Counted from the stretch's first letter, positions 1 through 41,805 are shown. The stretch: DNA of 64,000 nt from an uncultured bacterium (GCA_903870275.1 CAIQCK010000101.1:13141-77140); one strand, 5' to 3'. Numbers and translations: made by a program. The notes: generated from the sequence alone by a model not told the origin.

Positions 1-21
1 ACCACCTGATTTAATATCACC

Positions 22-825: not shown

Positions 826-836
826 CAAGGAGGCGT

Positions 837-1610
837 ATGCCCGACTCGTTCAGCCTTGAAAATAGAGTTGTCGTCCTCACCGGCGGCGCGGGATTGTTTG
901 GCCGCGGACTGGTATCCGCCATCGCAGCGGCTGGCGCGAAGCTGGTAATCGCCTCGCGCGACGTCGCCAAGCTCAACCGCGTCGCCGCCGAAGAAAATGC
1001 CCGGGGCCACTCCGTCGTGACTGAAAAGCTCGATCAAGGCGACGAAACATCCGTGCTGGCGCTGCGCGACCGCGTGTTGGAACGCTTCAGCCGCGTGGAC
1101 GGGTTGGTGAACAATGCGGTGTTGCGCCCGATGAAATCGCCAGACGCGCCAGTGGCCGCATGGGAGGAATCCATGCGGGTCAACGCCACGGGGACGTTTC
1201 TCATGACGCGGGCGTTTGGCGAAGCCATGTGCCAGCAACAGAGCGGCAGCATCGTCAACATCGGCTCCATGCAAGGCATGGTCGGCCCCAGCCTTGAACT
1301 CTACGAAGGCACCAACATGGGCGTTCCACCGCCGGATTATTTTTTCCACAAAGGCGGCATGATCAACCTCACCCGTTACTACGCCGCACTCTTCGGACAG
1401 CACAACGTGCGCGTGAACTGCGTCTCACCCGGCGGATTCTTCGATCATCAGCCGGAACCGTTTCTGAGCCGCTACTGCTCTCGGACTTTCGTCGGCCGGA
1501 TGGCCGACGATACCGACCTCGGCGGACCCGTGGTGTTCCTTTTGAGTGACGCTGCGCATTACGTCACCGGCGCGAACCTGCCCGTGGACGGCGGCTACAC
1601 GGCAAAGTAG
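837..1610 (+). CDS. short-chain dehydrogenase/reductase (SDR) family oxidoreductase
   Basis: N-terminal Rossmann motif VVLTGGAGLFG. Internal NNAV and catalytic Y..K region. 257 aa, typical SDR length. Probably an operon with the aldolase. Confidence 0.85.
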   Translation: MPDSFSLENRVVVLTGGAGLFGRGLVSAIAAAGAKLVIASRDVAKLNRVAAEENARGHSVVTEKLDQGDETSVLALRDRVLERFSRVDGLVNNAVLRPMKSPDAPVAAWEESMRVNATGTFLMTRAFGEAMCQQQSGSIVNIGSMQGMVGPSLELYEGTNMGVPPPDYFFHKGGMINLTRYYAALFGQHNVRVNCVSPGGFFDHQPEPFLSRYCSRTFVGRMADDTDLGGPVVFLLSDAAHYVTGANLPVDGGYTAK

Positions 1611-1615
1611 CGCGG

Positions 1616-2539: not shown

Positions 2540-2561
2540 GATAGCAATCCACAGACACGCA

Positions 2562-3128
2562 TCAGTCAGCCTTGCGCGTCGTCTTATCGTCAGGGTTATT
2601 AGCGCGTTCATAAACATCCATCGTTCCGTGCGGCGGCAACCAGTCCGCACGCTGGCGAACATCGTGTGTGCCGCTCATTTTCCCCGACTCGCTCGGCGGT
2701 GTGGGATCGTCGGCGCGGCGCAATTCCCACCAGCACTGCCCGCAGTGGTTGTGCTCGTGGTCCACGACCCACCCGCATTGTTTTAGCAACGGACCGATCC
2801 AGCCCATGCAGTGGTCGCAATAGTCGTGGTATCGCCGGAGAACGTTACGAAGCAGAAAGCCTTTCGATGGACACTCGTGCATGTCTATGCGGAATGTGGC
2901 GCTCGTGGCGGCGCAGTAGTAACCGGCGCCTTCGTCCGCAAGCGTATGGCCCCAGTATTCTTTCATGCCGGCGATGCCTTTCGCAGCGATAAGAGCCGCC
3001 GCGTGCCGCTGCGAGTCGCGATGAATCGCTTCGTCCCAATACTCGCGGACCAAGGACTCACCGCCCTGTTGGCGCAGCCATTCGAAGGTCCACTCGTAGT
3101 GGCCACAGAAATCGTAACAGCCTAGCAC
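2562..3128 (-). CDS. Cys/His-rich hypothetical protein (probable metal-binding)
   Basis: Frame remains open and coding-like from the stop of the upstream gene. Putative GTG start (3126-3128) overlaps the upstream TAG (GTGcTAG coupling). Motifs GCYDFCGHYEW, HDYCDHCMGW, HEHNHCGQCWW. An alternative ATG lies at 2966. Could also be a frameshifted continuation of 3122..3643. Confidence 0.45.
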   Translation of the reverse strand: MLGCYDFCGHYEWTFEWLRQQGGESLVREYWDEAIHRDSQRHAAALIAAKGIAGMKEYWGHTLADEGAGYYCAATSATFRIDMHECPSKGFLLRNVLRRYHDYCDHCMGWIGPLLKQCGWVVDHEHNHCGQCWWELRRADDPTPPSESGKMSGTHDVRQRADWLPPHGTMDVYERANNPDDKTTRKAD

Positions 3129-3643
3129 GCGGCCTCCTTGATGAGCGCGAGGTCCTGTGGCGCTGATACGATGTGGTGACGGAGAAAAGTTTGTCGGCAC
3201 GAACCATTGCCGCCTTCGACGCGCACCGTCAGCCCCGCTGGCGCAACCATCGCCTCGCCAACGAAATAGCAGTGCTGGCAGAAGCACGGGACGATTTCCC
3301 GGCCGTGCGCGCGGAGATGTTTGATGGCTGGGCAAACTTTCACGTCTAGTGTGACGACATCCGACGATTGGTGGACTTCGACTTCCGCTCCCGGTTCCGC
3401 GGCAAAGAAGGCGCGCCAATATGCTGCGACGGCCGGCAGGCCGCCCGTTCTCCAACGCACCATGACCGGAGCGAAATAGCCCGCACCGAGATCGGTCCAG
3501 TATCGCCGCAACCCCTCGATGCCGGACTTCTTCAGCACAAAGCGGAAGGTTGCGTTGATCGCGTAGTAAAAATCCGCCGCGCCGACCAGTTTCGTGTCAG
3601 TGTAGGGTAGCGGTTTGGCGGAGGAAGGCATGATGGCTTTCAA
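3122..3643 (-). CDS. hypothetical protein (contains CFCQHCYF motif)
   Basis: 173-aa ORF. Its ATG overlaps the stop of the upstream MFS gene (ATGA). Same strand and operon as the Kelch gene. No family recognised. Confidence 0.5.
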   Translation of the reverse strand: MKAIMPSSAKPLPYTDTKLVGAADFYYAINATFRFVLKKSGIEGLRRYWTDLGAGYFAPVMVRWRTGGLPAVAAYWRAFFAAEPGAEVEVHQSSDVVTLDVKVCPAIKHLRAHGREIVPCFCQHCYFVGEAMVAPAGLTVRVEGGNGSCRQTFLRHHIVSAPQDLALIKEAAC

Positions 3644-4905
3644 CTTTCAGCTACGCGACGGGATGGCTTGACCATAAACATCAACCCGGCGCAGAAAAGC
3701 ATGCTAACCGACGACCACATGAAGAGGTTGTTCACGTTCACATGCGCGTCGCGCAGCGCGCCGCCCGCGTAGATCGACACACCGCCGATGATGCAACTGA
3801 ACATGTTCAACACGCCATAGCCGGTCGCACGATAACGCGGGTCGGCTACCAAACAAAGCGCCGGCATCATGTTCGCGTCGGTGAAATAGCGTCCCACGCC
3901 GTATAGCATCAGCCCGGCGATGGCGACGATCAGCACGCTGGTCTTGGCCATGACAAAGACAGCGGGCGCGGCCAGGCATAGGCCGATGGCGGGGACGAGG
4001 ATGCGAGCGCGGATGTTGGTTCGGCTCCAGCGATCGGCCCACACGCCGCCAATGAGCAGGCCCAGCAACGTCGCCGTTTGCAAATAGCCGGTCGCCGACA
4101 AGCCGGCCACGCCTTGTGAGAGATGAAAGTTTTCGTTCAAGTAAGTTGGCAGCCAGCCCACCACCGCCCAGACGGCCATCCCGAGCACGCCCCAATAACC
4201 GAGCATGAAATAAAACGGGCCGCAGCTAAACAAGCTGCCGAGCGCTTCAACAAAACCTGCCTTCTGCTTGGGTCCCGCGGTTGCCAGCGCCTCTGCGTCC
4301 TCGCGTGGCGCATCCCGCAGCGTGAACACAAGCACCGCGGCATAAATGATGCCGACGATACCGAACAGGATAAACGCGTAATTCCATCCATGCCGTTCCG
4401 CCAGCCATCCGCCCAAACCGCCCAGCCCGGCGCCGACGCTAACGCCGGTCATGTGGACGCCCGTCGCCAGTGAGCGCGTGCCGGTGCGATGATAATCGGC
4501 GATGAGCGCGAGCGCCGCCGGGATGTAAGTCGCTTCGCTGATGCCCATGAGAGCGCGTGCAGCCAGAAGCTGCTCGAACGTCTTCGCGTGCCCCGTCAGC
4601 CACGTGAGCGCCGACCAGACCAGCAAGCTTGCGATAATAACGCGGCTGCGGCTGCAACGGTCCGCCAAATAACCCGTAAATGGGCTGATCACGCCATAGA
4701 CCCAGAGGAACACCGATGTAAGCAAACCAAATTGCGCGTCGGTCATTGGAATCGCCGCAACCAATGATCCGTGCATCGTGGTGATCATCACACGGTCGAG
4801 GTAATTCAAGCAGGCCACAATCCAAAGCAATCCCACAACGAGCCACGCCCGCGTGCATTGATTGGGGTTGCTAGTCATTTGGGTCGGATCAAACTTCGTC
4901 TTCAT
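3640..4905 (-). CDS. MFS transporter (sugar/sugar-acid type)
   Basis: 12 predicted hydrophobic helices. MFS-type loop motifs (..DRCSRSRV.., ..GWLAERHGW..). ATG taken at 4905 (MKTKF); the ORF extends to 4935. Confidence 0.8.
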   Translation of the reverse strand: MKTKFDPTQMTSNPNQCTRAWLVVGLLWIVACLNYLDRVMITTMHGSLVAAIPMTDAQFGLLTSVFLWVYGVISPFTGYLADRCSRSRVIIASLLVWSALTWLTGHAKTFEQLLAARALMGISEATYIPAALALIADYHRTGTRSLATGVHMTGVSVGAGLGGLGGWLAERHGWNYAFILFGIVGIIYAAVLVFTLRDAPREDAEALATAGPKQKAGFVEALGSLFSCGPFYFMLGYWGVLGMAVWAVVGWLPTYLNENFHLSQGVAGLSATGYLQTATLLGLLIGGVWADRWSRTNIRARILVPAIGLCLAAPAVFVMAKTSVLIVAIAGLMLYGVGRYFTDANMMPALCLVADPRYRATGYGVLNMFSCIIGGVSIYAGGALRDAHVNVNNLFMWSSVSMLFCAGLMFMVKPSRRVAES

Positions 4906-5208
4906 CCGCGCGCAAGGCCACCGAGGCGAGCGCAAGCATCGTGAACCACAGAACTGTTTTCATAGTGGGCAGCACTGTTGAAGACATCGTAGCGGAGGCG
5001 GGATGCGTCACAAGCGCGAAATGTTATCCTTGAACAAAGACCACAACTTCAAGCTTGGGTTTATCGTTCCGCTCAATCCGCCACACCGGCTCATTGCCCG
5101 CGCCTCCTGCCGCCTGAAAACCAACATTTACCAACACTTAAGGAACACTTTGTCGCTCCAACAACCGCAAGTCCGTGTGAGTGACAAGGCGGGACGCGGA
5201 ACACCCGC

Positions 5209-8070
5209 TCAAGGCGTGCTTTTTGAGATGTGCCGCTGCGGTTCGATGGGAATCAAGGCTCCGTTTCGAGCGGGTAGCCTGATTCGCAGCGGTTCCCGGC
5301 GACCGGCCAAATGCACGCTTGCCGTAACAGGCTTGGCAGCATGGTTGACGGCAACCAACCACTCGATTCCATCGCCCACAAGCAAACTGGTCTCGACATC
5401 ATCATTGTCTGCGCGGGCGTGAGTCGTGACCCCGGTCTTTGTGAGCGCAGCGCGCACCTGCCGCAGAAGATCCGTGCGCTCCCTCGTGTCCGGCGTCTCG
5501 GCGGCATCGTGGAACCGTTGTTCGAGGCTGCCGCTGAATCGAATCACACGCGGGTTGTCCCGAAATTCATCCGGCAGCCTGGCCGTGTCGTCACAGATGA
5601 CCCACCCGCCTGTGCGGAGAAAATCCGCAAGACACACGAGAGCCTCCTTCGGCAAGTAATCCGTTTCGACCATCGCCAGCACTTTCACCGGACCAAAACC
5701 CTTTCGCCCGACCGCGATCTGTTCGTGAGCGATGTCACACTCGCCAAAAGCGCGGAACAACAGTTGATACGCGTAGGCAGGCGCGAATTTCTTGCCGCCG
5801 CTCATCCACTGCGCCTGGGGAAAGTAAAGCGCCAGAGGCGATGGCAGTTTGTGAGTGTGCAGCAGCGCCGGCCCGGCGTCGCATATGGTGCACAGCTCGC
5901 GGCCCAAGTGATCCCATCGCTCCGGCCGCGCGCCCGTGCCGGTTCCAAACGCATTGTTGATGAATGAGTTCAGGTAGTGACAACCCTGGCTGATGGCGGT
6001 CCACGCGCACTCGCTACTTGCTTCGACCGGGTTGATCTGAAATGGATAGTTCCGATCATCCAGCTCGACGTAAAAACCCGCCGGCTTGCCAAGATGCCCG
6101 GCAATGGCGCGTTGCACCGCAAAACAGAAATGCGCCTGAAGCATCCGAATGTTTTGCGAGACGGGATAAAAGTAGGGATACACGTCGAAGTCCACGTAGT
6201 CGGCAGCGCGCGACCAGCCGAGAACATCCTCCAGCGCGCGCCGATTATCGGCGTAGCCGTAGCCGGGCGCCATGTAGGTCAACAGCAGACCAAACGGCGC
6301 GGCGGATTCGCTCGCGACCTGCCGGCTTGCTTCGTAGCCGGTCGCCACATAATCGGCAATGAACTGACTGAGCTGCCGGTGGCCTTCGGCGTCGCCGGCC
6401 GGTATCTCAGCGCGCCTTCGCAATGGCCGGCCGAATCGTTTCTGAAACTCACGCTGGCAGAGCGGGCAGTAGTCCAGCGACTTGTCACAGGCGGTCGGCT
6501 CGTCGAGAATCTTGATTCCCCACACGCGTGGATACTCGCGCGCCGCGTCGAGCCTCGGCCTCAATATTTTGGCAAGAGCTTCACGATAATCGGGCGCGAA
6601 CACACAAGGCGTTGGCGGCGTGTCGGTGCCAATGTTGGTCAGGCGTTCGTATTCGAACATGACAGCCATGCCGCGCGACTGCGCGTAGCGGATTGCATAG
6701 TCGAGCAGCCGCGCACGGTTGTCCCAGGGCTTGCGGGCCAGGTGCCGCAAGCCGCCAATGGCAACGGTATTGAATCCGTGTCCGCTCAGATCGTCCACGC
6801 GTTCGCGCAACGCGCGCTCGTCGAGCAAGTGACCGCCTCCCTCGGTGCCAAGCCATGAGATGATCGGAAAGAAGTTTGTGCGGTCGAGGGGTTGGGGATG
6901 CGCGAAATCGGCGGGCACTGCGGCGTAACCCGGCAGATTTGCCGCGCCAGGCTCCTGCCCGGCGAGCCACTGGCAGGTTCGCGCCAGTTGCGTCCGGTAT
7001 TCTCCCGACGCGAAATAACAGCCATCCATGGTTGTTGCGACATTGGGACGTCCATTGAGCAACGCCACGCGCCCGAGATGAAAACTGCGTTGCGACAGCA
7101 TGGCCTTATTCTTCGTGTTCGCTGCGGGCAGCATCTCCGCGAGGGGGCGGGGAAAGGATTTTGCCGTGTCGAGCGTCGTCGGCCCACCCACGAACAGCAA
7201 CCCGCCGCCGCTGGCAACATAATCACAGAGCATTTCCACCTGTGCCCGCGTCAACACGTAAGGATCAACGTCCACCAGCGCCACGAGGTCATAGTCCAAC
7301 ATCTCCCGTGAGGACGCGGGAAAACCGAAGACGGGAAAATGAAGGCCCCGAAACAGTCGCCGCTCCACGGCCACGCCAACCGCTTCCAGCGTCTCGCGGA
7401 CGAAATAGAAGCTCGCCGCGGAGTGGGTAACCAACAGGGCACGGCTCAGGTTGCCGGTCTTGCGCGGGCTGACGCGCGGTTGGTATTGCCAATCGGGCGG
7501 CGACTTCGGACGCAGCCGGATGTTTGCCACGGCAAAGTCGCCTTCAAATGCCTGTCCGTCGGCCACGCCAATCCGAAACGTGAGTTCCTTCAACGGATGG
7601 AAATACGCGCTGTAGATATTGCGGGGTTCGGCGAAGTGGTCGAGCCGTACCACAGCCGTCTGCCATCGGCCCGGCGTTACATCGTGCAACCGCGCAAAAG
7701 GCAGATCAGTGAACTCGGCCGGCCCGGTGCGGAACCGGAACACCAGCGCGCGATCCGGGTCGAGATGATTCGTCGACCTGAGACGGAAAGAAAATGTGAG
7801 CTGTTCCCAGCGGTGAAGGCCCGGCAAGTTGTCGAACTTCTTTGTCAGAAACGCGGCGTGCGGCGAACTGTCCACCGCGACACGGAGCGTGCCGCACAAC
7901 GCAGACGAGCCATCCACGGCATTGCTGACGACGTTCAAGCTCTTTGCTCCGGCACCGCTGAGTTGCCATCCAGCCGGTCGCGGCGAAGAGAAATCGTCCA
8001 AAACGGTGACTTCAGCATGAGCCGTCACGACTGTGGCGAGAACAAGAAAGAGAGCTTTCATAAACAGCAT
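5209..8070 (-). CDS. large secreted multidomain glycoside-hydrolase-like protein
   Basis: Signal peptide MLFMKALFLVLATVVTAHA from ATG 8070; the ORF extends to 8241. 950 aa with TIM-barrel GH-like stretches (..GFNTVAIGG.., ..FEYERL..) and a trimerisation/ThuA-like stretch (..DYVASGGGLLFVGG..). Family not resolved. Confidence 0.5.
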   Translation of the reverse strand: MLFMKALFLVLATVVTAHAEVTVLDDFSSPRPAGWQLSGAGAKSLNVVSNAVDGSSALCGTLRVAVDSSPHAAFLTKKFDNLPGLHRWEQLTFSFRLRSTNHLDPDRALVFRFRTGPAEFTDLPFARLHDVTPGRWQTAVVRLDHFAEPRNIYSAYFHPLKELTFRIGVADGQAFEGDFAVANIRLRPKSPPDWQYQPRVSPRKTGNLSRALLVTHSAASFYFVRETLEAVGVAVERRLFRGLHFPVFGFPASSREMLDYDLVALVDVDPYVLTRAQVEMLCDYVASGGGLLFVGGPTTLDTAKSFPRPLAEMLPAANTKNKAMLSQRSFHLGRVALLNGRPNVATTMDGCYFASGEYRTQLARTCQWLAGQEPGAANLPGYAAVPADFAHPQPLDRTNFFPIISWLGTEGGGHLLDERALRERVDDLSGHGFNTVAIGGLRHLARKPWDNRARLLDYAIRYAQSRGMAVMFEYERLTNIGTDTPPTPCVFAPDYREALAKILRPRLDAAREYPRVWGIKILDEPTACDKSLDYCPLCQREFQKRFGRPLRRRAEIPAGDAEGHRQLSQFIADYVATGYEASRQVASESAAPFGLLLTYMAPGYGYADNRRALEDVLGWSRAADYVDFDVYPYFYPVSQNIRMLQAHFCFAVQRAIAGHLGKPAGFYVELDDRNYPFQINPVEASSECAWTAISQGCHYLNSFINNAFGTGTGARPERWDHLGRELCTICDAGPALLHTHKLPSPLALYFPQAQWMSGGKKFAPAYAYQLLFRAFGECDIAHEQIAVGRKGFGPVKVLAMVETDYLPKEALVCLADFLRTGGWVICDDTARLPDEFRDNPRVIRFSGSLEQRFHDAAETPDTRERTDLLRQVRAALTKTGVTTHARADNDDVETSLLVGDGIEWLVAVNHAAKPVTASVHLAGRREPLRIRLPARNGALIPIEPQRHISKSTP

Positions 8071-14134: not shown

Positions 14135-15241
14135 TCACCATCGGCTCTTCAGCATCTTGTCGAAAACCCCCAGGATTTCCTCGCGGTTGCGTTCCTCATC
14201 GTCAAGTTGCCGCCGAAAGAAATCATAACCGCATCGAGTCTTGGCACCGGCGAGATCATCTCGGCTGGCCGTGCGCAACAAGGCCGGCAGACTCTGTCCA
14301 CCGCCCGAGGCGGTGCGCGAGCCGGGACGCAGGCTCCGATTTACATAAAAAGCGCTCAGCGCACCCCGGATCGCCGCCGAATCGTAGCTGTGCGTCGGGC
14401 GACCGTGCCTGCCCAGGTCGTTGAGCAGGTCCACAAACTCCGCCGTGGTTTTCTTGACCCGTTCCAGGTCGTCGGCCTCGGCATAAAACCGTTTCCAGTC
14501 AATGGTCTGCCACTTTTGCACACTGTCCAACCGGAAGCCAAAGCGGCGGATCTTCTCTTGGCGGGGGCCCGTCTTTTTCACCATCGCATAGGTCGCCACG
14601 CCGAGAACCTTGCCGCTTTGCACGTGGATGATCGGGCTGCCGCTGTTGCCCGGCACGAACGGCGCATCCACCTCTACCAGATTCGGCCCGATGCCGATCA
14701 GTTTGCCTTCCAACAGATTCACGACCCCCGCGCCTTCCGCGTTGCCAAGCACCACGACGGCGTCGCCGATTTCGGCCTCCTTCTCCACGGACGCCACCGG
14801 CGGGATGGACACGCCGCCTTCGACCACCGCGAGCGCAACCAAATCGTGTCCCATCGCCACCAACGGAGTGCCGACCTGCACCGGCGTGCTATCGAGCAGT
14901 TTGAACGTGGCGGCTTTGATGGCGGCTACCACGTGGGCGTTGGTAATCAGATACTTCCGGCCCCGGATGTCCGTAATAAAACCGCTGCCCTTTCCGGCCT
15001 TGCCCTCGAAGAAAACCAGACCGCTGCGGTAATTGCGCACCAGCGCCGCCGCCTTGTCATCGTCCGACGCGCGCGCCGTGCCGTAAAAGACAAGACCACA
15101 AGCGAGAGCGGCGATGACAGCCCACGCTTTGAAAGCACAGCAACTCCGGGAAGAAAAAAAACCTCGTGCGTCGTGACCGGAGCCTTCCGTCCACGCCTGC
15201 TTCCTGTTCTGTTGTGCCATCAAGTTCAAACCGGGCGGCAA
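14135..15241 (-). CDS. trypsin-like serine peptidase (S1/S1C family)
   Basis: Catalytic triad contexts TNAHVV (His), D in LVAL, and GNSGSP (Ser). N-terminal hydrophobic segment. Preferred over the overlapping plus-strand ORF 14108..15373, which has no motifs. Confidence 0.75.
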   Translation of the reverse strand: MPPGLNLMAQQNRKQAWTEGSGHDARGFFSSRSCCAFKAWAVIAALACGLVFYGTARASDDDKAAALVRNYRSGLVFFEGKAGKGSGFITDIRGRKYLITNAHVVAAIKAATFKLLDSTPVQVGTPLVAMGHDLVALAVVEGGVSIPPVASVEKEAEIGDAVVVLGNAEGAGVVNLLEGKLIGIGPNLVEVDAPFVPGNSGSPIIHVQSGKVLGVATYAMVKKTGPRQEKIRRFGFRLDSVQKWQTIDWKRFYAEADDLERVKKTTAEFVDLLNDLGRHGRPTHSYDSAAIRGALSAFYVNRSLRPGSRTASGGGQSLPALLRTASRDDLAGAKTRCGYDFFRRQLDDEERNREEILGVFDKMLKSRW

Positions 15242-15331
15242 TTTAATGGCCGCCGCGCCCCCGCAACAGCAAAATCATCCGGGCCGGCACGGTGCAACGT
15301 CGTAACGCGCGCCGCCATCGCGGAAAAAAAA

Positions 15332-15408
15332 TGGTGGGCGCGCTCGGATTCGAACCGAGGACCCAGTGATTAAGAGTCACTTGCTCTAGCCAGCTGAGCT
15401 ACGCGCCC
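15332..15408 (-). tRNA. tRNA-Lys (anticodon CUU)
   Basis: Reverse complement GGGCGCGTAGCTCAGCTGGCTAGAGCAAGTGACTCTTAATCACTGGGTCCTCGGTTCGAATCCGAGCGCGCCCACCA gives a canonical cloverleaf with anticodon loop CTCTTAA (CTT) and encoded CCA. A T8 run follows immediately 3'. Confidence 0.9.
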
Positions 15409-15426
15409 ACTCGAAAAGTGCGCAGA

Positions 15427-15484
15427 CCCTACCGATGTCGCCATGGCCTGTCAATACTCTACTCGATGGTACTCTACTCGATGG
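15427..15484 (-). promoter_or_regulatory. putative sigma70-type promoter of tRNA-Lys with upstream tandem 15-bp repeats
   Basis: On the minus strand: TTGACA (15450-15455) -17 nt- TAGGGT (15427-15432), about 18 nt before the tRNA 5' end. Immediately upstream are two perfect tandem copies of tactctactcgatgg (15455-15484). Confidence 0.4.
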
Positions 15485-15622
15485 CAAAATGCTGGCGACA
15501 AATCCCCCTTCTCCACCCGTCACGTCGCCTTCGCGGGCGGCCTGCGCACGCTCTTGACGCAGCCTGCCAATCCGCCCAAACTGGCGTGCCAGAAGGAAAC
15601 CAACCTTAACAGGCGATTCATC

Positions 15623-16024
15623 ATGAGCACTCTGGATCCGATTCAAATCCTCAATATCCTCTGGGGACTCCGCCAGGAAATTGACGCGTTGGAGAACGAT
15701 ACAAGGAGCGAAGTGGTCTCCGGCGCGCAAGTGGAGCAGAACGTCACGTCCCGCATGATCATCCCGCTCGACGCGCGCCTGAGCAAACTCTCGCTGATTT
15801 GCCGCGCCATGTGGTCGCTCATGCAGCAAAACCTGGGCGTGACCGAAGAAGATTTGCTGAAGCGCATCACCGAGATTGATGGCATGGACGGCCGGATCGA
15901 CGGCAGGGTGACCAAACCGGCGCTCCAGTGTCCCAAGTGCAAGAGCGTGGTTTGCCGCCAGTTCAATCGCTGCTTGTTTTGCGGCTACGAACCGCCCGAC
16001 CGCGACCCTTTCGATGAAGTCTGA
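15623..16024 (+). CDS. small hypothetical protein with C-terminal zinc ribbon (CPKC...CLFC)
   Basis: 133-aa ORF from ATG 15623; the ORF extends back to 15443 across the tRNA promoter region. Helical N-terminus plus CxxC-x11-CxxC. Confidence 0.5.
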   Translation: MSTLDPIQILNILWGLRQEIDALENDTRSEVVSGAQVEQNVTSRMIIPLDARLSKLSLICRAMWSLMQQNLGVTEEDLLKRITEIDGMDGRIDGRVTKPALQCPKCKSVVCRQFNRCLFCGYEPPDRDPFDEV

Positions 16025-16038
16025 CGCAGGCTGGGAAC

Positions 16039-16073
16039 GCGCTGCGGTCGAGACAGCAGCGCGCTGATTTTTT
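16039..16073 (+). terminator. putative bidirectional intrinsic terminator
   Basis: gcgctgc-ggtcgagaca-gcagcgc hairpin followed by gctgaTTTTTT. Lies between the convergent 15623..16024 and rsfS genes. Confidence 0.45.
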
Positions 16074-16081
16074 ACTGCCGG

Positions 16082-16432
16082 CTACACCCGCTTCGCGTCG
16101 CCCCACAACCGCTCCAGCGCGTAGTGATGACGCACGTCGGCGCGAAAGACGTGGACGACGACGTCGCCGTAATCCACCACGACCCAGTGGCTGGAGTAAA
16201 CGCCGTCGCGACCGCGCGGCATGCGGCCATGCTCCTTGAGCCGCATCTCGACACTGCCGGCAATGGCTTTCAGATGCGGCTCGGAGGTGCCGTTGCAGAT
16301 GAGGAAAAAGTCGCAGAAGGAGGAGATGCCGCGCATGTCGAGCAGCACGATCTCGTCGGCCTTTTTTTCCAGCGCGGCCTCGCGGCACAGGCTGGCCAGT
16401 TCGGGGGAATCCAGGGGGGTGTTGTTGTCCAT
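16082..16432 (-). CDS. rsfS: ribosomal silencing factor RsfS (Iojap family)
   Basis: 116 aa. Conserved Iojap core ..DIVLLDMRG..FCDFFLICNG.S..H. Overlaps the stop of the upstream nadD, the typical nadD-rsfS arrangement. Confidence 0.85.
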   Translation of the reverse strand: MDNNTPLDSPELASLCREAALEKKADEIVLLDMRGISSFCDFFLICNGTSEPHLKAIAGSVEMRLKEHGRMPRGRDGVYSSHWVVVDYGDVVVHVFRADVRHHYALERLWGDAKRV

Positions 16433-17007
16433 CAGCTGTAAAGTCCGGTTTTCTCAATATACCGCCGCACGGCATCCGGCACAAGGTAGCGGACCGACGC
16501 GCCGCGCGCGAGCCGGTCGCGGATGTCTGACGACGAGATGTCGGCAGGATGGCCGGGCAATCGGTGAACACGCACACCCCGGAGCCGCGTGCGGGCCGGC
16601 CGTTCGCCGGGCCGCGCGACGCAAATAAACTCGCAGAGCCGTGCCAGTTCCGAAGCCTCGCGCCACGTGTGCAGTTCGTTCAGGCTGTCGGTGCCGATGA
16701 GAAAATAAAACTTCGCGCGTGGCATGGCGTGGAGCAGTTGGCGCAACGTCTCCACCGAATACGACGGCCCGCCCCGCCGCATCTCCATGTCGGAGCAGCC
16801 GAAACGCGGATTGCCGTGAATGGCGAGTTTGACCATCCGCAGCCGGTGTCGCGCCTCGGCCAGCACAGGGGGCCGTTTGTGCGGCGGCGTGGCGGCGGGA
16901 ATGAAGATGACCCGATCCAGTTCGAGCGCTTCCGCCGCGGCGTCGGCAATGAGCAGGTGCCCCATGTGAATGGGGTTGAACGTGCCGCCGAAGATGCCGA
17001 GTTTCAT
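16432..17007 (-). CDS. nadD: nicotinate-nucleotide adenylyltransferase NadD
   Basis: GIFGGTFNPIHMGHL (HxGH nucleotidyltransferase motif) and C-terminal ISSSDIR motif. Start taken at MKLGIFGG (17007); the ORF extends to 17028. Confidence 0.85.
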   Translation of the reverse strand: MKLGIFGGTFNPIHMGHLLIADAAAEALELDRVIFIPAATPPHKRPPVLAEARHRLRMVKLAIHGNPRFGCSDMEMRRGGPSYSVETLRQLLHAMPRAKFYFLIGTDSLNELHTWREASELARLCEFICVARPGERPARTRLRGVRVHRLPGHPADISSSDIRDRLARGASVRYLVPDAVRRYIEKTGLYS

Positions 17008-17030
17008 CGTGTCGCTATCAGTCGCCACTA

Positions 17031-17119
17031 GTCAGTGTACAGTGGTTAGTGGACAGTGACCAGTGTTCAGTTTGCAGGAATCCGTTCGTTCACTGCCCAC
17101 TGTTCACTGTCCACTGATC
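17031..17119. repeat. inverted heptamer-period repeat pair: (NNCAGTG)x6 -13 nt- (CACTGNN)x4
   Basis: Left arm 17031-17083: seven 7-nt units (gtcgcca ctagtca gtgtaca gtggtta gtggaca gtgacca gtgttca) plus partial gtttg. Right arm 17096-17119: gttcact gcccact gttcact gtccact. The arms are imperfect reverse complements (gtggacagtgaccagtg / cactgttcactgtccac). Lies between the nadD start and the tRNA-Tyr 3' end. Confidence 0.7.
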
Positions 17120-17135
17120 CCTATTCACAAAAAAA

Positions 17136-17220
17136 TGGTGGAGGGAGAAGGATTTGAACCTTCGAAGGCATAGCCACCTGATTTACAGTCAGGCCCATTT
17201 GGCCGCTTTGGTATCCCTCC
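17136..17220 (-). tRNA. tRNA-Tyr (anticodon GUA)
   Basis: Reverse complement GGAGGGATACCAAAGCGGCCAAATGGGCCTGACTGTAAATCAGG...TTCGAAGGTTCAAATCCTTCTCCCTCCACCA. Anticodon loop CTGTAAA (GTA), long variable arm, encoded CCA. A T7 run follows immediately 3'. Confidence 0.9.
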
Positions 17221-17303
17221 ACTCTCAAAAAACGTGGCGCGCAACGTACCAGACCCCAATATCGGAGTCAAGGCATGCGCGGACGGGTTGTTGGGAAATC
17301 CGC

Positions 17304-18092
17304 TCATCGCGCCGGCAGTTCGCGAATCTTGAGATTGCGGAACCAGACGCCGCCGCCGTGGTCCTGCAAGAGGATCGGCGTCTTGATTTTGTCGGCGAAC
17401 CCGGGCACGTCCTTGAACTTGCTCTCGGCAATGCCCGCCGCCGACTCGGCGCTGTCGGTCTCATACTCGACCACCTTCGCGCCGTTGAGCCAGTGCTCGA
17501 CATGCTTGCCTTGGATCACAATGCGCGACTGGTTGAATTCGCCCAGCGGTTTCAGCACGGCGCCCTTCGGCGCGATGACCACATACCACGACGCCGTCAT
17601 GGACTTCGGCCCCTCTTTCTTGGCCCACGCCGCGTCGTCGAGCATCTGATACTCGTGAGCGATGGCGCTCTTGTAAACCTTGCCCTTCTTGTCGGCGCGC
17701 TTCTCGTCCACAAAATACTTCACACCGCTGTTGGCGCCGGCCGAAAGCTTCCACTCCCACGAGAACTCGAAATTATCAAATAGCTTCGTTGTGATGATGT
17801 CGCCGCCGCCGGTGGCCTTGGGCTTCTCGCCGGGCGCGGGCGCGGCAGGTTTCTCACAGTTGAGACAGCCGTCCTCGACCACCCAGCCGTGCGCGGGAAA
17901 CGCCTCCTTCTGGAAACCGCGCCAGCCGGTCGTGCCCTTGCCGTCGAACAACAGTCGCCAACCGGCCTCCTTCTCCGCTGCCGTCAGCTCATTGCATCCG
18001 GCCTCGGCGCCCGTCGCCCACGCGACCGCCGCCGCGCCGATGCCGCACATCATCCACATCCTGCTCATCAAATTCATTTTCGCTCTCCTCAT
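17304..18092 (-). CDS. DUF1080 (3-keto-disaccharide hydrolase-like, ConA-like fold) secreted protein
   Basis: Signal peptide MNLMSRMWMMCGIGAAAVA. Characteristic DUF1080 motifs W..L.DG...GWRG..., ..NSGVKY.. and DHGG.VWFRN..I. ATG taken at 18092; the ORF extends to 18170. Confidence 0.75.
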   Translation of the reverse strand: MRRAKMNLMSRMWMMCGIGAAAVAWATGAEAGCNELTAAEKEAGWRLLFDGKGTTGWRGFQKEAFPAHGWVVEDGCLNCEKPAAPAPGEKPKATGGGDIITTKLFDNFEFSWEWKLSAGANSGVKYFVDEKRADKKGKVYKSAIAHEYQMLDDAAWAKKEGPKSMTASWYVVIAPKGAVLKPLGEFNQSRIVIQGKHVEHWLNGAKVVEYETDSAESAAGIAESKFKDVPGFADKIKTPILLQDHGGGVWFRNLKIRELPAR

Positions 18093-18211
18093 TGCGCCCT
18101 CTTCGCTAAAGCATTCGCCACCGAACGTCCAGCGGATTTTGCGGTTGCGCCGGCGGCGCGCTGGCACCAACTGCGGACGCGTCGCGATTACCCGGGAACG
18201 TTTTTGCCGAA

Positions 18212-19648
18212 GTGCCCGACAATAGAACCGTTTTGCAGTCAGACCGTTTTACATTGAGTCGGCAGCCGCCGCGTTTTACTTTGGCGTGTGTGGCTGCTGG
18301 ACAACACAAAACACACGGCTGGAAAAACGAAATTTTGAGAACCCAACATCTTATCGCGGCTTGCGCGCTGTTGCTCGGCGCAACGGAAGTCTATCCCCAA
18401 AACAAAGCGCCCCAGCCCACGGTTCGGAGCGATTCGGTGAACCTCGCCGCAGCCTGCAACAACGACGGCCACGCCAAGCTGGCCAGGCACGAGTGGGACG
18501 GCGCGCTGGCCGATTTCAACCGCGCCATCGAACTCAATCCGCAATTGGCCGCCGCCTACTGCAACCGCGCCAGCGCCTACTACAACAAAGGCGACTACGA
18601 CCGCGCCTTGCAGGACTTCAACCGCGCCATTGCCCTCGACCCAAACTACAGCACGGTCTTCAATGGGCGGGGCTATGTCCTGCTCGAACAAGGCGACTGG
18701 AGCGGCGCGCTGGCCGACTTCAACCGCGCTCTCGGCCCCTACCCCCATGACGCCGCCGCCTACAATGGCCGCGGCAACGCCCGGCAAAATCTGGGTGACG
18801 CGGACCGCGCTCTGGCCGATTTCAGCCGCGCCATCGAACTCAATCCCAGCTACGCCGCCGCCTACAATGGCCGCGGCAATGTCAAATGGACCAAGGGTGA
18901 CTTGAAGGGTGCGCTGGCCGATTTCAGCAAAGCCATCGCGCTCAATCCGAAGTTCGCTCCGGCTTGCACCAATCGCGGCCATATCCGTCGCATCCAGGGC
19001 GACGTGGACGGCGCGCTGGCCAACTTCAACCGCGCCATCGAATGCAACCCGAAGTTTGCTCCTGCATACAACGGCCGCGGCAGCATCAAGTGGACCAGGG
19101 GCGACACGAGCGGCGCGCTGGCCGATTTCAACACCGCCGTTGAACTGGATTCCAAGCTCGCCTCCGCCAGCTTCAACCGCGCCAGCGTCTTCTACGACAA
19201 ACGCGATTACGGCCGGGCCATCCAGGATTACAACCGCGCCATCGAGTGCAACCCGAAGTTCGCCCCCGCCTACAACGGCCGCGGCAGCGCCAAGTGGGCC
19301 AAGGGCGACGTGAGCGGCGCGCTGGGCGATTTCGATACCGCCATCGAACTGGATTCCAAACTCGCCCTGGCCTACTGCAACCGCGCCGGCGTCTATTACA
19401 ACCAGCGCGATTACGACCACGCCGTGCATGACTACGACCGAGCCATCGCGCTCGATCCAACCCACGCCGCCTCCTACTATGGCCGCGCCGCCGTTTGTTT
19501 CGTCAAAGGCGACTATACGCGGGCACTGGCGGATGTGAAGACATGCCAAAAACTGGGCGGCCAAGTGGATCCCGCCTTTCTCGCGCAACTGATGCAACCG
19601 CCCAGCAAGGCGAAGAAGGAAGAGAAGTCAGTGATCAGTAATCAGTAA
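18212..19648 (+). CDS. TPR-repeat protein (secreted/periplasmic)
   Basis: At least 10 tandem 34-aa TPR units (..A.ADFNRAIELNP..A.AY.NRG...). A probable signal peptide (LIAACALLLGATEV) begins at in-frame TTG 18335; coordinates given are the ATG ORF. The last 7 codons are encoded by the CAGTG heptamer array. Confidence 0.8.
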   Translation: MPDNRTVLQSDRFTLSRQPPRFTLACVAAGQHKTHGWKNEILRTQHLIAACALLLGATEVYPQNKAPQPTVRSDSVNLAAACNNDGHAKLARHEWDGALADFNRAIELNPQLAAAYCNRASAYYNKGDYDRALQDFNRAIALDPNYSTVFNGRGYVLLEQGDWSGALADFNRALGPYPHDAAAYNGRGNARQNLGDADRALADFSRAIELNPSYAAAYNGRGNVKWTKGDLKGALADFSKAIALNPKFAPACTNRGHIRRIQGDVDGALANFNRAIECNPKFAPAYNGRGSIKWTRGDTSGALADFNTAVELDSKLASASFNRASVFYDKRDYGRAIQDYNRAIECNPKFAPAYNGRGSAKWAKGDVSGALGDFDTAIELDSKLALAYCNRAGVYYNQRDYDHAVHDYDRAIALDPTHAASYYGRAAVCFVKGDYTRALADVKTCQKLGGQVDPAFLAQLMQPPSKAKKEEKSVISNQ

Positions 19649-19687
19649 CCAGTGTTTAGTAATCAGTGGCCAGCGGCCAGTCGTCAC
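19627..19687. repeat. (NNCAGTR)x8-9 heptamer tandem array
   Basis: gtcagtg atcagta atcagta accagtg tttagta atcagtg gccagcg gccagtc. Spans the TPR gene stop and ends 20 nt before the membrane-protein ATG. Confidence 0.75.
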
Positions 19688-19706
19688 AAACAACCGGTAT
19701 TCGCAT

Positions 19707-20327
19707 TTGGATTCGTTCACTGTGAACAAGGCCAAGGTCATTCTACTCAGCATCATCGCCGCGTGCGGCTACGGGGTTGTCCACGACCAGATCACCGCCC
19801 GGCTCTGCATCGAGTATTTCACCGTAGCCCACCCGCCGCTGTTTCACACAACGTCCCCCACGCTTCTCGCGCTCTGCTGGGGTATCGCTGCCACTGCAGC
19901 CATCGGCGCTGGCTTTGGCATCGTCTTGGCATTGGTTTCGCAGTCCGGCAGTCCACCACCCTATCCAGTCTCGCGCCTCTTTCAAAATATTTTGCTTTTG
20001 CTCTCGGTGATGGCGCTATCGGCATTCATCGCCGCGGTTGCGGGCTATCAACTCTCGCAACGCGGCTTCCTTTCCGATCCCGCAGGTTTGATGGAGGCAA
20101 TTCCCGCCCACCAGCATCACCGCTTCAGGGCTGTCTGGTTCGCACACATCGCCAGCTACCTCGTTGGTCTGGGCGGCGCAACGGTTCTATGTTTGCGCGT
20201 GTGGCGCCAGCGGGGTTGCCCCTCCGTCATCTCACTTTTTCCCCGCACGCGCGCGGCCGCTATCCGCGCTGTCATCGTTGTCGCCATCGCCGCATCTATC
20301 GTATGGATTTGTTTTATCGCTCACTGA
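19707..20327 (+). CDS. hypothetical integral membrane protein (5-6 TM)
   Basis: 206-aa ORF with several hydrophobic helices. No family recognised. Flanked by oppositely oriented CAGTG/CACTG heptamer arrays. Confidence 0.5.
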   Translation: MDSFTVNKAKVILLSIIAACGYGVVHDQITARLCIEYFTVAHPPLFHTTSPTLLALCWGIAATAAIGAGFGIVLALVSQSGSPPPYPVSRLFQNILLLLSVMALSAFIAAVAGYQLSQRGFLSDPAGLMEAIPAHQHHRFRAVWFAHIASYLVGLGGATVLCLRVWRQRGCPSVISLFPRTRAAAIRAVIVVAIAASIVWICFIAH

Positions 20328-20387
20328 GCAACCAACGAAAGCACCCACCCATGTGTTGTTGCAAACCGCCGTCCTGCCCCTTTCCGC

Positions 20388-20425
20388 TTACTGTCCACTG
20401 TTCACTGACCACTGATCACTGGCCA
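20388..20425. repeat. (CACTGNN)x5-6 heptamer tandem array (inverse orientation of 19627-19687 array)
   Basis: ttactgt ccactgt tcactga ccactga tcactgg ccattcc. Lies in the convergent intergenic region between the membrane-protein gene and the gluconolactonase gene. Confidence 0.7.
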
Positions 20426-20430
20426 TTCCC

Positions 20431-21333
20431 CTACTTCGCCTGATTGGCGCCTTTGACGCGCATGCGGATGGAGTAAAAGCCTTTGCTGGCAGTGATGAAA
20501 AGAGTGCGCTTGTCCTTGCCGCCGAAACAAAGGTTGGCGGTCCACGGCTCCGGCACGTCTATGTGCTCGATCTGTTTGCCCGTGGGGTCGAAGACGGTGA
20601 CGCCTTTGCCGGTGATGTAGATGTTGCCCTCGTCGTCGAGCGTCATGCCGTCGGAGCCGGGCCGAAACAGCAGCGTCTTGTTTGTGAGCGAGCCGTCGGG
20701 CTGAATGTTGTAGCGGTAGGTCTTCCGGTCCTGGATGTCGGCGACGTAGAGGGTCTTGCCGTCGGGCGTGCCGATGATGCCGTTGGGCTGGACGAGGTCG
20801 GTGGTGATGCGCACGAGCTTCTTGCGGTCCGGCGTGAGGTAATAGACCTGCTGGCTGTCCTGCGGCATCTTGTCGTGCTTCCACCACGGCCGCTTGTAAA
20901 ACGGGTCGGTGATATACATCCCGCCGTCGGGCCGCACCCAGACATCGTTCGGGCCGCACAGCAGCTTGCCCTCGTAGTCCTTCACGAGCACGGTCACGCT
21001 TCCGTCGGGCGCGATGCTCCACAGCTCGTTCTTCTCGTCGGCGCAGGAGATGATGTTCCCCTGCGCGTCGAAATACATGCCGTTGGAGCGGCCGGCCGGC
21101 TGTTTGAACGTGGTGAGTTTGCCGTCCACGCTCCATTTCATGATGCGGTCGTTGGGCTGGTCAGTGAAGAAGACGTTGCCGGCGGCGTCGCAGGTCGGCC
21201 CTTCGGTGAACTTGAACTCGCCGGAGAGTTTCTCCAGTTTAGCGCCGGGGGCGATGACGCTCTCCGCGCCGAAGAGCTGCGCGCCGGCGATAAGGCAAAG
21301 GGTCAGTGTGGCCAGCAGGAGTTTGGTTTTCAT
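20431..21333 (-). CDS. SMP-30/gluconolactonase/LRE-like beta-propeller protein (secreted)
   Basis: Signal peptide MKTKLLLATLTLCLIAGAQLFG at ATG 21333. SGL-family motifs ..FTEGP..D..GN..F.D, ..PNG.. and ..D..GN.Y.T. The ORF extends to 21495. Confidence 0.75.
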   Translation of the reverse strand: MKTKLLLATLTLCLIAGAQLFGAESVIAPGAKLEKLSGEFKFTEGPTCDAAGNVFFTDQPNDRIMKWSVDGKLTTFKQPAGRSNGMYFDAQGNIISCADEKNELWSIAPDGSVTVLVKDYEGKLLCGPNDVWVRPDGGMYITDPFYKRPWWKHDKMPQDSQQVYYLTPDRKKLVRITTDLVQPNGIIGTPDGKTLYVADIQDRKTYRYNIQPDGSLTNKTLLFRPGSDGMTLDDEGNIYITGKGVTVFDPTGKQIEHIDVPEPWTANLCFGGKDKRTLFITASKGFYSIRMRVKGANQAK

Positions 21334-21486
21334 GATGAACTTCCTCGCGTTTTCAACTGTCGGGCAACCGCGCAAACCATAAGCACGCCGTTCGCCGCCC
21401 GTCGAGCGCATTCCAACTCGTGGCAGGCCAAACGGTGAGTTCGAAATTCCACGACGAGCCGGAGGATTTAAGGTAGGATTCTCGTT

Positions 21487-21993
21487 ATGCGCCACGCCAT
21501 CACATCCATTTTACTGGCACCGCTGATTCTTATTCAAGGAACCACCTTGGCCGCAGATAACGCCGCCGACCAAGCGACGGTGCAGTTCATCAACCAACAG
21601 GCGTTGCGATGCATGACCAGCATCAAACTCGAGCTGGCCGGGTTGAGCAACCGGTGTCCCGCCTTCAAAACCATCGTCGCCGAACCGATGGACGCCGCGA
21701 AACCCACCGGCAAGAATGCGGGCTGTAGCATGAATTTCTGGCATCAAATGCATTACGTGGATGGCAAAGAGGTGCTGGATGACAGCGGAGTCCGCCTCGC
21801 CGTGGGCATCCGGGAACACATGCCCAACATGCAGACGACCCAACGGTATCGGGCCACCGTCGGCAAAAAACGAGTGACCGCCTATTATCACCTCGAGCTC
21901 GGCCAAAATCTGAAAGATCTGGAGGCGCCAATCAAGGCGATCCTCGACAGGAACTTGCAGCAATTCTGCGCCCTGGCGGAAAAGATGAAGTGA
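21487..21993 (+). CDS. secreted hypothetical protein
   Basis: 168 aa with N-terminal signal peptide (ILLAPLILIQGTTLAA). No recognised family. Confidence 0.45.
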   Translation: MRHAITSILLAPLILIQGTTLAADNAADQATVQFINQQALRCMTSIKLELAGLSNRCPAFKTIVAEPMDAAKPTGKNAGCSMNFWHQMHYVDGKEVLDDSGVRLAVGIREHMPNMQTTQRYRATVGKKRVTAYYHLELGQNLKDLEAPIKAILDRNLQQFCALAEKMK

Positions 21994-22003
21994 TGAGGCG
22001 GGG

Positions 22004-22046
22004 ATTGGAGATTGGTAATTGGTGGCCGGTAATTGATTGTTGGTGA
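22004..22046. repeat. (NNATTGG)x6 heptamer tandem array
   Basis: ggattgg agattgg taattgg tggccgg taattga ttgttgg, immediately after the stop of the 21487..21993 gene. Confidence 0.6.
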
Positions 22047-22109
22047 AAGGCGGAACGCCATCTGTCAGGTCTGGCCGGATAAAACGTGACGGACCGCATC
22101 CTCGACCGT

Positions 22110-22808
22110 TCAAAAAGCCTCCCATGGCGGTTCGTAATGAATAAACTCGTGGTGTTCGCCAATCGTCGCCTCCCAGAAAGGGCACCACATCAAGTCAATT
22201 ATGAACGCCGGAGGCACTAACACCTGCGCTGGATATCCCCACCATTCTCTGTAGTCACGACGCATGTGCGTGCCTGGAATAACCTGCAAGTGGATGTTCT
22301 TGCCCATTATGACGTAAGGAATTGTCTGGCCCATTGCGAAAGTGGATGCGTTCTTCCTGAAATTCGGTGGAATCTTTTCGAGCGCCATATTCTCACGGCT
22401 GATGCCATCGGGGACAACCTCCCAGACTTTGTTTCCACAACAATCAGCCGATATCTGGATGGTGGGCGGATATTGCTGTCCCGGATTCGTCAGACGCGGG
22501 TGAGAGTCATACTCCCGCCACGTTTTCGTTCTATAGATAGAGCTTTCAACACCAGAGCGGGAAGCAATTACGTATTTGTTACACCTGAAGATCGGGTTTC
22601 CATTTCCAGCAGCGATCCCAAACCTGGCTTTCACGGCAATTGCTCCATCCTCTGCCACAATCACCGAATCTTTGGCCAGAATGTCGCTATTAAGATATTC
22701 CATGCGTTTGCCCGCGACTGTCACCGCCTTCGTTGTCATGCACCCGCTAGTGATGACGGACAACAGCACCAGACCAGCGATCCTCAGCCAAGCCTTGTTC
22801 ATTTTCAT
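22110..22808 (-). CDS. hypothetical lipoprotein
   Basis: Signal peptide with lipobox-like LLSVITSGC at ATG 22808 (MKMNKAWL). About 230 aa, no family recognised. The ORF extends to 22877. Confidence 0.5.
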   Translation of the reverse strand: MKMNKAWLRIAGLVLLSVITSGCMTTKAVTVAGKRMEYLNSDILAKDSVIVAEDGAIAVKARFGIAAGNGNPIFRCNKYVIASRSGVESSIYRTKTWREYDSHPRLTNPGQQYPPTIQISADCCGNKVWEVVPDGISRENMALEKIPPNFRKNASTFAMGQTIPYVIMGKNIHLQVIPGTHMRRDYREWWGYPAQVLVPPAFIIDLMWCPFWEATIGEHHEFIHYEPPWEAF

Positions 22809-23061
22809 GGGTGTTGCTCCTGATGGTTCCACAGGGAAAGGCGCGGCTAAGCCCGGCGTATAACGGAGAATTTCCAAAGTCCATCGTGATCCGTTTCCGG
22901 TGATAAGACCGGACCGCCGGGCCGGCCAAAATAACGACTCGGCGCGCCCAGCGGTCGCACCCTACCCGTGTGCCAGGCGTCCCGCCTGTCCTACTCTTTC
23001 CTCTGGAATTTGCCGCCGGTTCGGAGACATATTGTCCCCGTCATCGAAAGGAAACCCGATA

Positions 23062-24510: not shown

Positions 24511-24755
24511 CGCCCGCGGGCGAGTCGTGGGTCTCTTTCTAATTGTGGCGGCGGTAGCCGACCACGAAAGGCAGGGTCGGACCGCAGGGCCGGCCGAAAG
24601 CCCCGGCAAAGAGGAAGCGATGCCGATTTGAGAACGTTGCGGCGCGCCCAGCGGTCGCGCCCTACCAGTCTACCCCAACAGGGTGGGAATCACTCAGCCC
24701 GGCGTCGTCTGGCCCTCCGGCCTGCGCCTTTTTTGAAAATAATAGACAATTTCAC

Positions 24756-41776: not shown

Positions 41777-41805
41777 CACGGTTCAGCAAACACAAAGACT
41801 CGATT

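Follow-up and report, generated by a model that had tools for sequence, protein, structure and literature searches.

In a 64,000-nucleotide stretch of DNA from an uncultured bacterium (GCA_903870275.1, CAIQCK010000101.1:13141-77140; the whole stretch is called the window here), tandem arrays of the heptamers CAGTGNN and CACTGNN face each other twice, once as a compact hairpin between a tRNA gene and nadD and once on either side of a gene for a small integral membrane protein. This arrangement raises the question of whether the arrays are the ends of a mobile cassette or belong to the genes that they adjoin. A first-pass annotation had read them either as a palindromic element of the repetitive extragenic palindromic (REP) kind that had captured a gene, or as recombination sites, with 17031-17119 as the unoccupied one. 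Our analysis largely refutes this cassette and empty-site interpretation. We give a probability of roughly 0.55 to the reading that the window arrays are members of an already described class, the intergenic heptameric tandem repeats, and not the ends of a mobile cassette, in which case they most likely form stem-loops in the RNA, at 3′ ends or in spacers between cistrons, that serve as RNase III sites or exonuclease barriers. The second site would look like a cassette because two convergent genes, coding for a tetratricopeptide repeat (TPR) protein and an SMP-30/gluconolactonase-like (SGL) protein, each carry their own 3′-end array, with a small gene between them.

The inverted CAGTG/CACTG arrays themselves are real and far above chance. 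At the first site (hairpin 1), a 5′ arm of six heptamer units (17033-17072), with CAGTG at 17033, 17040, 17054 and 17061, TAGTG at 17047 and CAGTT at 17068, pairs with a 3′ arm (17091-17116) of four CACTG units, at 17091, 17098, 17105 and 17112, across an 18-nt loop (17073-17090); the hairpin and its four CACTG units had been described correctly, while the left arm had been given as seven units and the loop as 13 nt. At the second site, the left array (19629-19684, plus strand) holds eight units of CAGTG/CAGTA type, including the degenerate forms CAGTA, TAGTA, CAGCG and CAGTC. It runs in the same sense as the TPR gene (18371-19648, plus strand, with the start of the public gene call; the longest open reading frame (ORF) starts at 18212), overlaps its stop codon (19646-19648) and, as first noted, encodes its last codons (KSVISNQ*). 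The right array (20389-20421) holds five ACTG/CACTG units, that is, (CAGTGNN)n on the minus strand, and its edge lies 9 nt from the stop codon (20431-20433) of the SGL gene (20431-21333, minus strand; PF08450, 9e-44). The pair does enclose a membrane-protein gene, as annotated, although the database form of this gene has 201 aa from a GTG start at 19722 (19722-20327, plus strand) and not the 206 aa first given, which correspond to an ORF with a TTG start (19707-20327).

Tandem Repeats Finder called period 7 at all four array sites, and a strict sliding-window self-match recovered the arrays at period 7 plus, once, period 10. With up to two mismatches, CAGTGNNCAGTGNNCAGTG, which spans three CAGTG units, matched the window 16 times, against 0.10 matches expected from shuffled sequences. 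Hairpin 1 is the longest inverted repeat of the window (17033-17116), and folding it, as the first-pass annotation had proposed, gave -44 kcal/mol on the plus strand (z -5.8) and -45.6 kcal/mol on the minus strand (z -5.1), with energies of about -44 to -49 kcal/mol across runs. Two Logan runs and one ENA record supply three independent assemblies with 100% identity across the region, so the array sequence is no assembly artefact, and no copy-number variation of the arrays was found among these three samples of the same strain. The strain is present in ERZ18629311, SRR5754711 and ERR4195937.

Heptamer arrays at the ends of genes

We searched the exact pattern (CAGTGNN)x4 in one-genome-per-species contigs and in IMG/VR. 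It occurs at more than 119 genome loci, against about one by chance as estimated from collection size, and in at least 120 viral contigs; the genome loci fall, among the matches listed, in Acidobacteriota, Planctomycetota, Chloroflexota, Cyanobacteriota, Verrucomicrobiota and Bacteroidota, and CAGTG arrays are present in Scytonema, Rivularia and Brasilonema. Most arrays in other genomes are unpaired, and an array type that is this common across phyla and mostly lacks a partner speaks against the mobile or cassette reading.

Many of the arrays have their position in common. An array was scored as lying at a stop codon when it began between -25 and +12 nt relative to the stop, in sense, of a frame no shorter than 100 codons. 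Among 143 genome arrays, 56 did so, compared with 21 in antisense and 9.5 under random placement; the corresponding figures for 290 viral-contig arrays are 114, 36 and 21.7. Combined, 39% of the 433 arrays lie at sense stops against about 7% expected at random, a four- to six-fold enrichment with a three-fold excess of sense over antisense, as counted on crude stop-to-stop frames to which spurious frames in GC-rich DNA add noise. Three arrays of the window fit this pattern, at the stops of the TPR gene, the SGL gene and a 168-aa ORF (21487-21993) on the far side of SGL, the last being a (GATTGGN)n array (21995-22045, plus strand) that starts 2 nt after the stop codon.

The order of the arms is equally regular. 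All 47 inverted pairs less than 200 nt apart (14 in genomes, 33 in viral contigs) lead with the CAGTG arm and none with the CACTG arm, and since a hairpin reads alike from both strands, this polarity belongs to the structure itself. Of 50 hairpins made of other heptamers, 41 have a 5′ arm richer in G than in C, and the unrelated units AGTTAAG, ATTGGTA and GGCAGAA behave like the CAGTG arrays. In one viral contig (L220, IMGVR_UViG_3300047586_000106, positions 1-7440), nearly every gap between co-directional ORFs consists of one CAGTG/CACTG hairpin reaching from stop to next start, with eight hairpins within 7 kb, and in another (L266) all intergenic regions are packed with units of the window's left array. 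The loop and spacer sequences of array pairs at other loci are unrelated to each other. Where pairs in array-rich viral contigs are separated by long gaps, the gaps hold ordinary genes between consecutive intergenic arrays; this adjacency explains such pairs, and we found no support for genes other than the PF05635 family, treated below, as loop cargo in these contigs.

ORFs that enter (TCAGTGA/TCAGTAA)n arrays gain the C-terminus ...VISNQ*, a tail shared by the TPR protein of the window and by an 86-aa ORF, unrelated to it, in a viral contig (L260, 2334-2586). The window as a whole contains seven period-7 arrays of three unit types, five of them intergenic or overlapping a stop codon and two within coding sequence. 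The latter are an in-frame (AATCCAA)n array (39238-39278) in the gene 39083-41776, encoding QSKTQNPKSKIE, and an in-frame (AATCTCA)n array (41958-41997) in the gene 41773-44880, encoding ESQISNRKSQIV. A period-7 repeat within coding sequence is unusual, and here it stands at the same N-terminal position in two tandem paralogues, with different units.

Read together, these regularities suggest how the arrays may work. Each would begin where a transcribed unit ends, give or take a few bases, and read as G-rich CAGTGNN in the sense of that unit; should a complementary second array come next, the transcript would form a long stem-loop. The arrays would be transcribed as 3′ untranslated region or inter-cistron spacer, where stems of 25-35 bp could provide an RNase III processing site, a barrier to 3′ exonucleases, or both. 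With the same 7-nt unit repeated in both arms, pairing would survive the gain or loss of units by replication slippage, and any G-type array could in principle pair with any C-type array. In line with a role in processing or protection, a consensus scan found no U-tract (Rho-independent) terminators and no canonical promoters at the arrays, and on the minus strand the T-run precedes hairpin 1 rather than following it as in an intrinsic terminator. Stem-loops mark the 3′ ends of transcripts whichever termination factor is used (PMC13613805). Rfam recorded no family at the arrays, only tRNA plus sub-threshold noise, and no rRNA in 16500-22500.

Simple slippage offers another account, in which the arrays are functionless microsatellites tolerated only outside coding sequence and the hairpins are by-products of inverted duplication. 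The long simple-sequence repeats of many bacterial genomes are most often heptamers, with polymerase slippage proposed as the cause (Mrazek 2007, as summarized in PMC4679880), and this account gains from the fast turnover of units between relatives, from the unpaired state of most arrays and from the two arrays within coding sequences of the window. It leaves unexplained the strict arm order, the enrichment at stops with its sense bias, the exact filling of gene gaps by hairpins in L220, and the hairpin potential that is kept at one site in three relatives despite sequence change, as described below. We therefore consider neutral repeats unlikely.

The same locus in related genomes

The surroundings of hairpin 1 bear on whether it is a vacant site. 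On the minus strand, a DUF1080 (PF06439) gene is followed by tRNA-Tyr(GTA) (17136-17220, minus strand; ARAGORN, with an Rfam tRNA score of 59 bits), seven T at the tRNA 3′ end, hairpin 1, a nadD-like nucleotidyltransferase gene (16432-17007, minus strand; PF01467, 1.6e-25) and rsfS, the nadD ATG (17007) lying about 25 nt downstream of the hairpin. Two related loci, L207 (whose SGL protein is 90% identical) and L214, carry SGL, DUF1080, tRNA-Tyr, nadD and rsfS in one row, without the TPR gene and without the membrane gene, and both keep the order tRNA-Tyr, hairpin, nadD, rsfS. The spacer hairpins fold with z -5.0 in the window, -1.5 in L207 and -3.2 in L214, and their heptamers differ: in the L207 hairpin the CAGTG/CACTG type is degenerate and joined by a CCGGTGAA/TTCACCGG segment, and the L214 hairpin is made of GAGTGA/TCACTC units. 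A consensus fold of the three has 18 pairs, 3 of 18 with compensatory changes, a weak covariation drawn from three orthologues. Since hairpins stand at the same place in both relatives, 17033-17116 is no empty site; the tRNA-Tyr/nadD hairpin is a conserved inter-cistron structure and not a vacant attachment site. Its processing could separate the fate of tRNA-Tyr from that of nadD-rsfS.

The expectation that gene content at the second site would differ among relatives was borne out, although the variable segment is not the one that the arrays delimit. By blastn breakpoints, the block present in the window and absent from L207 spans 18153-20434 (2,282 bp) and comprises the TPR gene, the left array, the membrane gene and the right array; its counterpart in L207 is 210 bp long, and in L214 SGL and the DUF1080 gene are separated at this point by a spacer of 62 bp. 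The whole TPR gene is thus included, and only the SGL end of the block adjoins an array. The composition of the TPR-membrane gene block gives no sign of foreign origin, with a GC content of 0.56-0.65, like its surroundings.

These comparisons bear directly on an integron-like or other site-specific cassette, in which the array pairs would be recombination sites and 17031-17119 an empty attachment site. Inverted arrays do resemble a foldable site, and genes do come and go at this locus, yet the supposed empty site is a hairpin kept in place in relatives, the limits of the variable block are not those of the array pair, and arrays occur by the hundred in unrelated phyla, viral contigs and ordinary operons. 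As first noted, no recombinase lies adjacent: the ORFs of 15000-23000 include no recombinase, integrase or transposase by Pfam and NCBIfam, which leaves none within about 8 kb. Inspection showed neither attC-type R/L cores nor flanking direct duplications. We regard such a system as highly improbable here.

The right array, in turn, is best assigned to the 3′ end of SGL, because the position after the SGL stop is also occupied in relatives without the membrane gene. L207 has (ATTGGTA)n there, L212 and L213 have a hairpin of (AGTTAAG)n/(CTTAACN)n, and L209 has a perfect hairpin without periodicity. At the same sites, the more distant relatives differ in unit type and in number of units, and the region downstream of SGL is different in every relative examined.

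This variability could also point to an element acting at the level of DNA, whether by binding proteins on a pseudo-palindromic core (the sequence shows CAGTG and CACTG to be a single CASTG site seen from its two strands), by extruding as cruciforms, or by acting as recombination hot spots behind the local gain and loss of genes. Over 10 kb of this region, the two breakpoints against L207 (20434 and 21997) each lie at a heptamer array beside a stop codon, the region after SGL changes from relative to relative, and the arm polarity resembles a switch in strand composition. Breakpoints at gene ends are expected anyway, however, copy number does not vary across the three samples of the strain, and the similar behaviour of unrelated units makes a sequence-specific DNA-binding protein unlikely. 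A DNA-level element is, in our judgement, improbable.

Beyond the second of these breakpoints, 1,036 bp at 21998-23033 are low in GC (about 0.51, as also measured for 22000-22800), and L207 holds unrelated sequence instead; a 255-aa ORF in this stretch (22110-22877, minus strand) has no NCBIfam match (Pfam was not run). Two intergenic stretches of L207 (5493-5521 and 4214-4294) match window positions 24638-24728 at 84-93% identity and may represent a small dispersed element. The SGL orthologues (300 aa, 80-91% identical) are labelled Verrucomicrobia, and the source names of the closest of them place the organism in that group.

The membrane gene and PF05635 genes in hairpin loops

The membrane protein belongs to a conserved family with 547 homologues, typically of 201 aa, with invariant His, Asp and Pro positions and no match to a Pfam or NCBIfam family. 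We collected 84 homologue loci, four on long contigs and 80 from metagenomes, and found arrays beside the gene in 0 of 84. The neighbours differ in each of the four long contigs and in every case seen, so we reject the membrane gene as a regular array cargo; a travelling pair of TPR and membrane genes is rejected as well, with any TPR match in only 1 of the 84 loci. Duplex energies between the 130-nt flanks of the homologues are mostly driven by length and are not distinct from within-gene controls. The suggestion of a palindromic element with a captured gene survives in part: the structure is palindromic, of a REP-like class, and its distant arrays are complementary, but they form no cassette.

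Inverted arrays that bracket a gene do occur elsewhere, as the first-pass annotation had envisaged, with a different gene inside. PF05635 is the family of the 23S rRNA intervening-sequence (IVS) protein S23p, an Avd-like four-helix bundle, and all eight detectable PF05635 ORFs at CAGTG-array loci adjoin arrays; seven are confirmed by Pfam, and the eighth (L041) contains a stop codon. In four of these loci, inverted heptamer arrays bracket a PF05635 ORF of about 115 aa (L067, 1273-1835; L080, 7443-7915; L119, about 4110-4750; L039, 5457-6050). In a viral sample chosen by protein motif alone (L337-L367; 31 loci, 24 of them non-redundant), arrays are adjacent in 18 of the 24, at least 12 of which are bracketed. 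The G-rich arm lies upstream in these hairpins, and the unit varies by locus.

Eight plasmid loci from cultured organisms (L368-L375), chosen regardless of arrays, gave the same picture, with complementary short-repeat arms on both sides of the PF05635 gene in seven and an array on one side only in the remaining one, on a Nostoc PCC 7120 plasmid. One of them (L372; Azospirillum lipoferum 4B plasmid AZO_p2, NC_016586.1 13792-15330) is a true 23S rRNA IVS with a PF05635 ORF, in which the rRNA flanks (GAGGACG/GATGACA)n, the ORF and a complementary (CGTCCTC/TGTCTTC)n; this arm structure means that the classical IVS stem is itself built from heptamer arrays. In a second (L371; Gemmatirosa kalamazoonensis plasmid 1, NZ_CP007129.1 1006986-1008521), the arms are (GAGGGCAG)n and (CTCCTGCC)n, with a period of 8, so that period 7 is not universal. 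The plasmid set also includes insertions between cas6 and cas4 and between cas10 and cmr3, and another PF05635 insertion lies between lysC and dapB. PF05635 genes, then, usually sit in the loop of heptamer-array hairpins. We found no literature stating this link in general terms, the Coxiella paper (PMC4990558) covering its own IVS.

The link lends some weight to the idea that the arrays flanking the membrane gene are the two arms of a single heptamer hairpin, into whose loop the gene was inserted or in which it replaced an earlier cargo, with 17033-17116 as a member lacking an ORF. The geometry matches that of the PF05635 loci, the first arm ending 20-35 nt before the ORF and the second starting 60 nt after it, and the neighbourhood of the membrane gene differs in every relative. 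Besides, the two arrays are each other's only partner: in 19600-20450, the minimum-energy and the centroid fold both pair the left array with the right one, and the duplex across the membrane gene reaches -44.7 kcal/mol (plus strand) and -55.4 kcal/mol (minus strand) against -18 +/- 4 kcal/mol for shuffled sequences. On the other side, pairing between arrays of the hairpin-1 site and the membrane-gene site is equally strong (-51.5 kcal/mol), and the left and right arrays match over only about 11 nt beyond the shared core, including one spacer dinucleotide. The cargo is not PF05635, tblastn finds no gene of this family in the 64 kb, the membrane-gene family lacks arrays at all 84 loci, and the block that differs from relatives takes in the TPR gene. 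In addition, the stop-codon pattern explains each arm separately, and in array-rich contigs ordinary genes come to lie between G-type and C-type arrays by adjacency. A gene placed in the loop of one hairpin seems to us an unlikely account of this site. Under the reading that we prefer, in which each array serves the gene it adjoins, the two could still pair in a TPR-membrane gene read-through transcript, looping out the membrane cistron.

A broader version would make heptamer hairpins the chromosomal form of IVS-type selfish elements, comparable to REPINs and their RAYTs, with PF05635-in-loop copies autonomous, ORF-less copies such as 17033-17116 non-autonomous, and 19629-20421 a member with a different gene in its loop. 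We hold this for a long shot; if true, PF05635 proteins and heptamer repeats, which have lacked an explanation since about 1990, would both gain a role.

Several points weigh against our own reading of the arrays as stem-loops of gene ends and gene gaps. The arrays flanking the membrane gene have no local partner, share one unit type and are predicted to pair, so that a split hairpin would look alike. Neither the fixed arm order nor the period of 7 is accounted for by RNA pairing energy, and with most arrays elsewhere unpaired, a stem-loop cannot be their sole role. The L207 hairpin is weak, 15 of 200 shuffles folding equally well, and the noise of the frame-based stop counts belongs here too. 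Even so weighed, the locus holds no new cassette or recombination system, and a false lead is removed. The shared unit, the fixed polarity and the PF05635 link make the heptamer class easier to test. The PF05635 link most deserves to be pursued. Joined to the RNase III cut published for the first heptamer of the Coxiella IVS, these points lead to a concrete experiment on heptamer-array function.

Heptamer arrays among known repeat systems

REP sequences and bacterial interspersed mosaic elements (BIMEs; REPINs) of enterobacteria and pseudomonads are palindromes present in many intergenic copies, frequently found behind a stop codon or in the gaps within an operon, and form stem-loops in mRNA that protect the upstream RNA. 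Each REP is one imperfect palindrome, 20-40 nt long, whose family sequence is conserved and with which a RAYT transposase is associated. The window arms, unlike these, consist of 7-nt units in tandem, vary in length and in unit, and conserve only a 5-nt core; no RAYT was seen in the window, and no transposase among the nearby ORFs. As for other mobile or repeat structures, inspection showed no direct duplication flanking either structure, as a miniature inverted-repeat transposable element or foldback element would have, and no R′′-L′′/L′-R′ (GTTRRRY) cores are visible in the arms, as in integron attC sites. The units are 7 nt long and contiguous, against the 23-47-nt repeats and similarly long unique spacers of CRISPR arrays. 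The statement that the structure matches neither attC nor CRISPR therefore holds.

The 23S rRNA IVS comes closer, sharing a long stem of terminal inverted repeats and a loop with or without an ORF, and the 18-nt loop of hairpin 1 is compatible with an empty loop of this type. In Coxiella, tandem heptamers (GACAGAT) form part of the 5′ side of the IVS stem, their number varies by strain, and RNase III excises the IVS, cutting at the start of the first repeat (PMC4990558). The window arrays differ in that they are flanked by tRNA-Tyr/nadD and TPR/SGL and not by rRNA, and the ORF between the distant arms codes for a membrane protein and not, as in an IVS with S23p, for PF05635.

With the cyanobacterial short tandemly repeated repetitive (STRR) sequences, the TAACTGA repeats (MacGregor 2015, PMC4679880) and the long simple-sequence repeats of Mrazek, the window arrays share the character of intergenic tandem heptanucleotides with a patchy distribution across phyla; these classes comprise mixed heptamer types, and strains differ in 7-nt steps (PMC4679880). 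The TAACTGA sets of Beggiatoaceae lie just upstream of start codons, with 169 direct and one indirect (PMC4679880). The window arrays, unlike them, follow stop codons, and one site is a paired-arm hairpin.

The closest relatives are the Xanthomonas GGGAATC and Nostoc GGGGAYT heptamers (PMC4692102), which are likewise tandem 7-nt units, mostly intergenic and dispersed, many of them arranged as two convergent arrays, one per strand, that can form a stem-loop. In Xanthomonas, the GGGAATC heptamers form convergent inverted pairs near stop codons on the coding strand, and they are transcribed, with transcripts tending to start or stop at the repeats (Rehm 2015, PMC4692102). The window unit differs from both in consisting of a 5-nt core plus a variable dinucleotide without G-tracts, so that no G-quadruplex is expected, in being hosted by a Verrucomicrobial metagenome-assembled genome, and in being common to at least six phyla plus viral contigs; we found no literature linking heptamer repeats to Verrucomicrobia, Planctomycetes or Acidobacteria. 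What is new here is the unit CAGTGNN and the lineage and phylum in which it occurs, the class itself having already been described. The stop-codon and polarity regularities extend the Xanthomonas observations of Rehm and colleagues, and they appear to be general properties of heptameric repeats.

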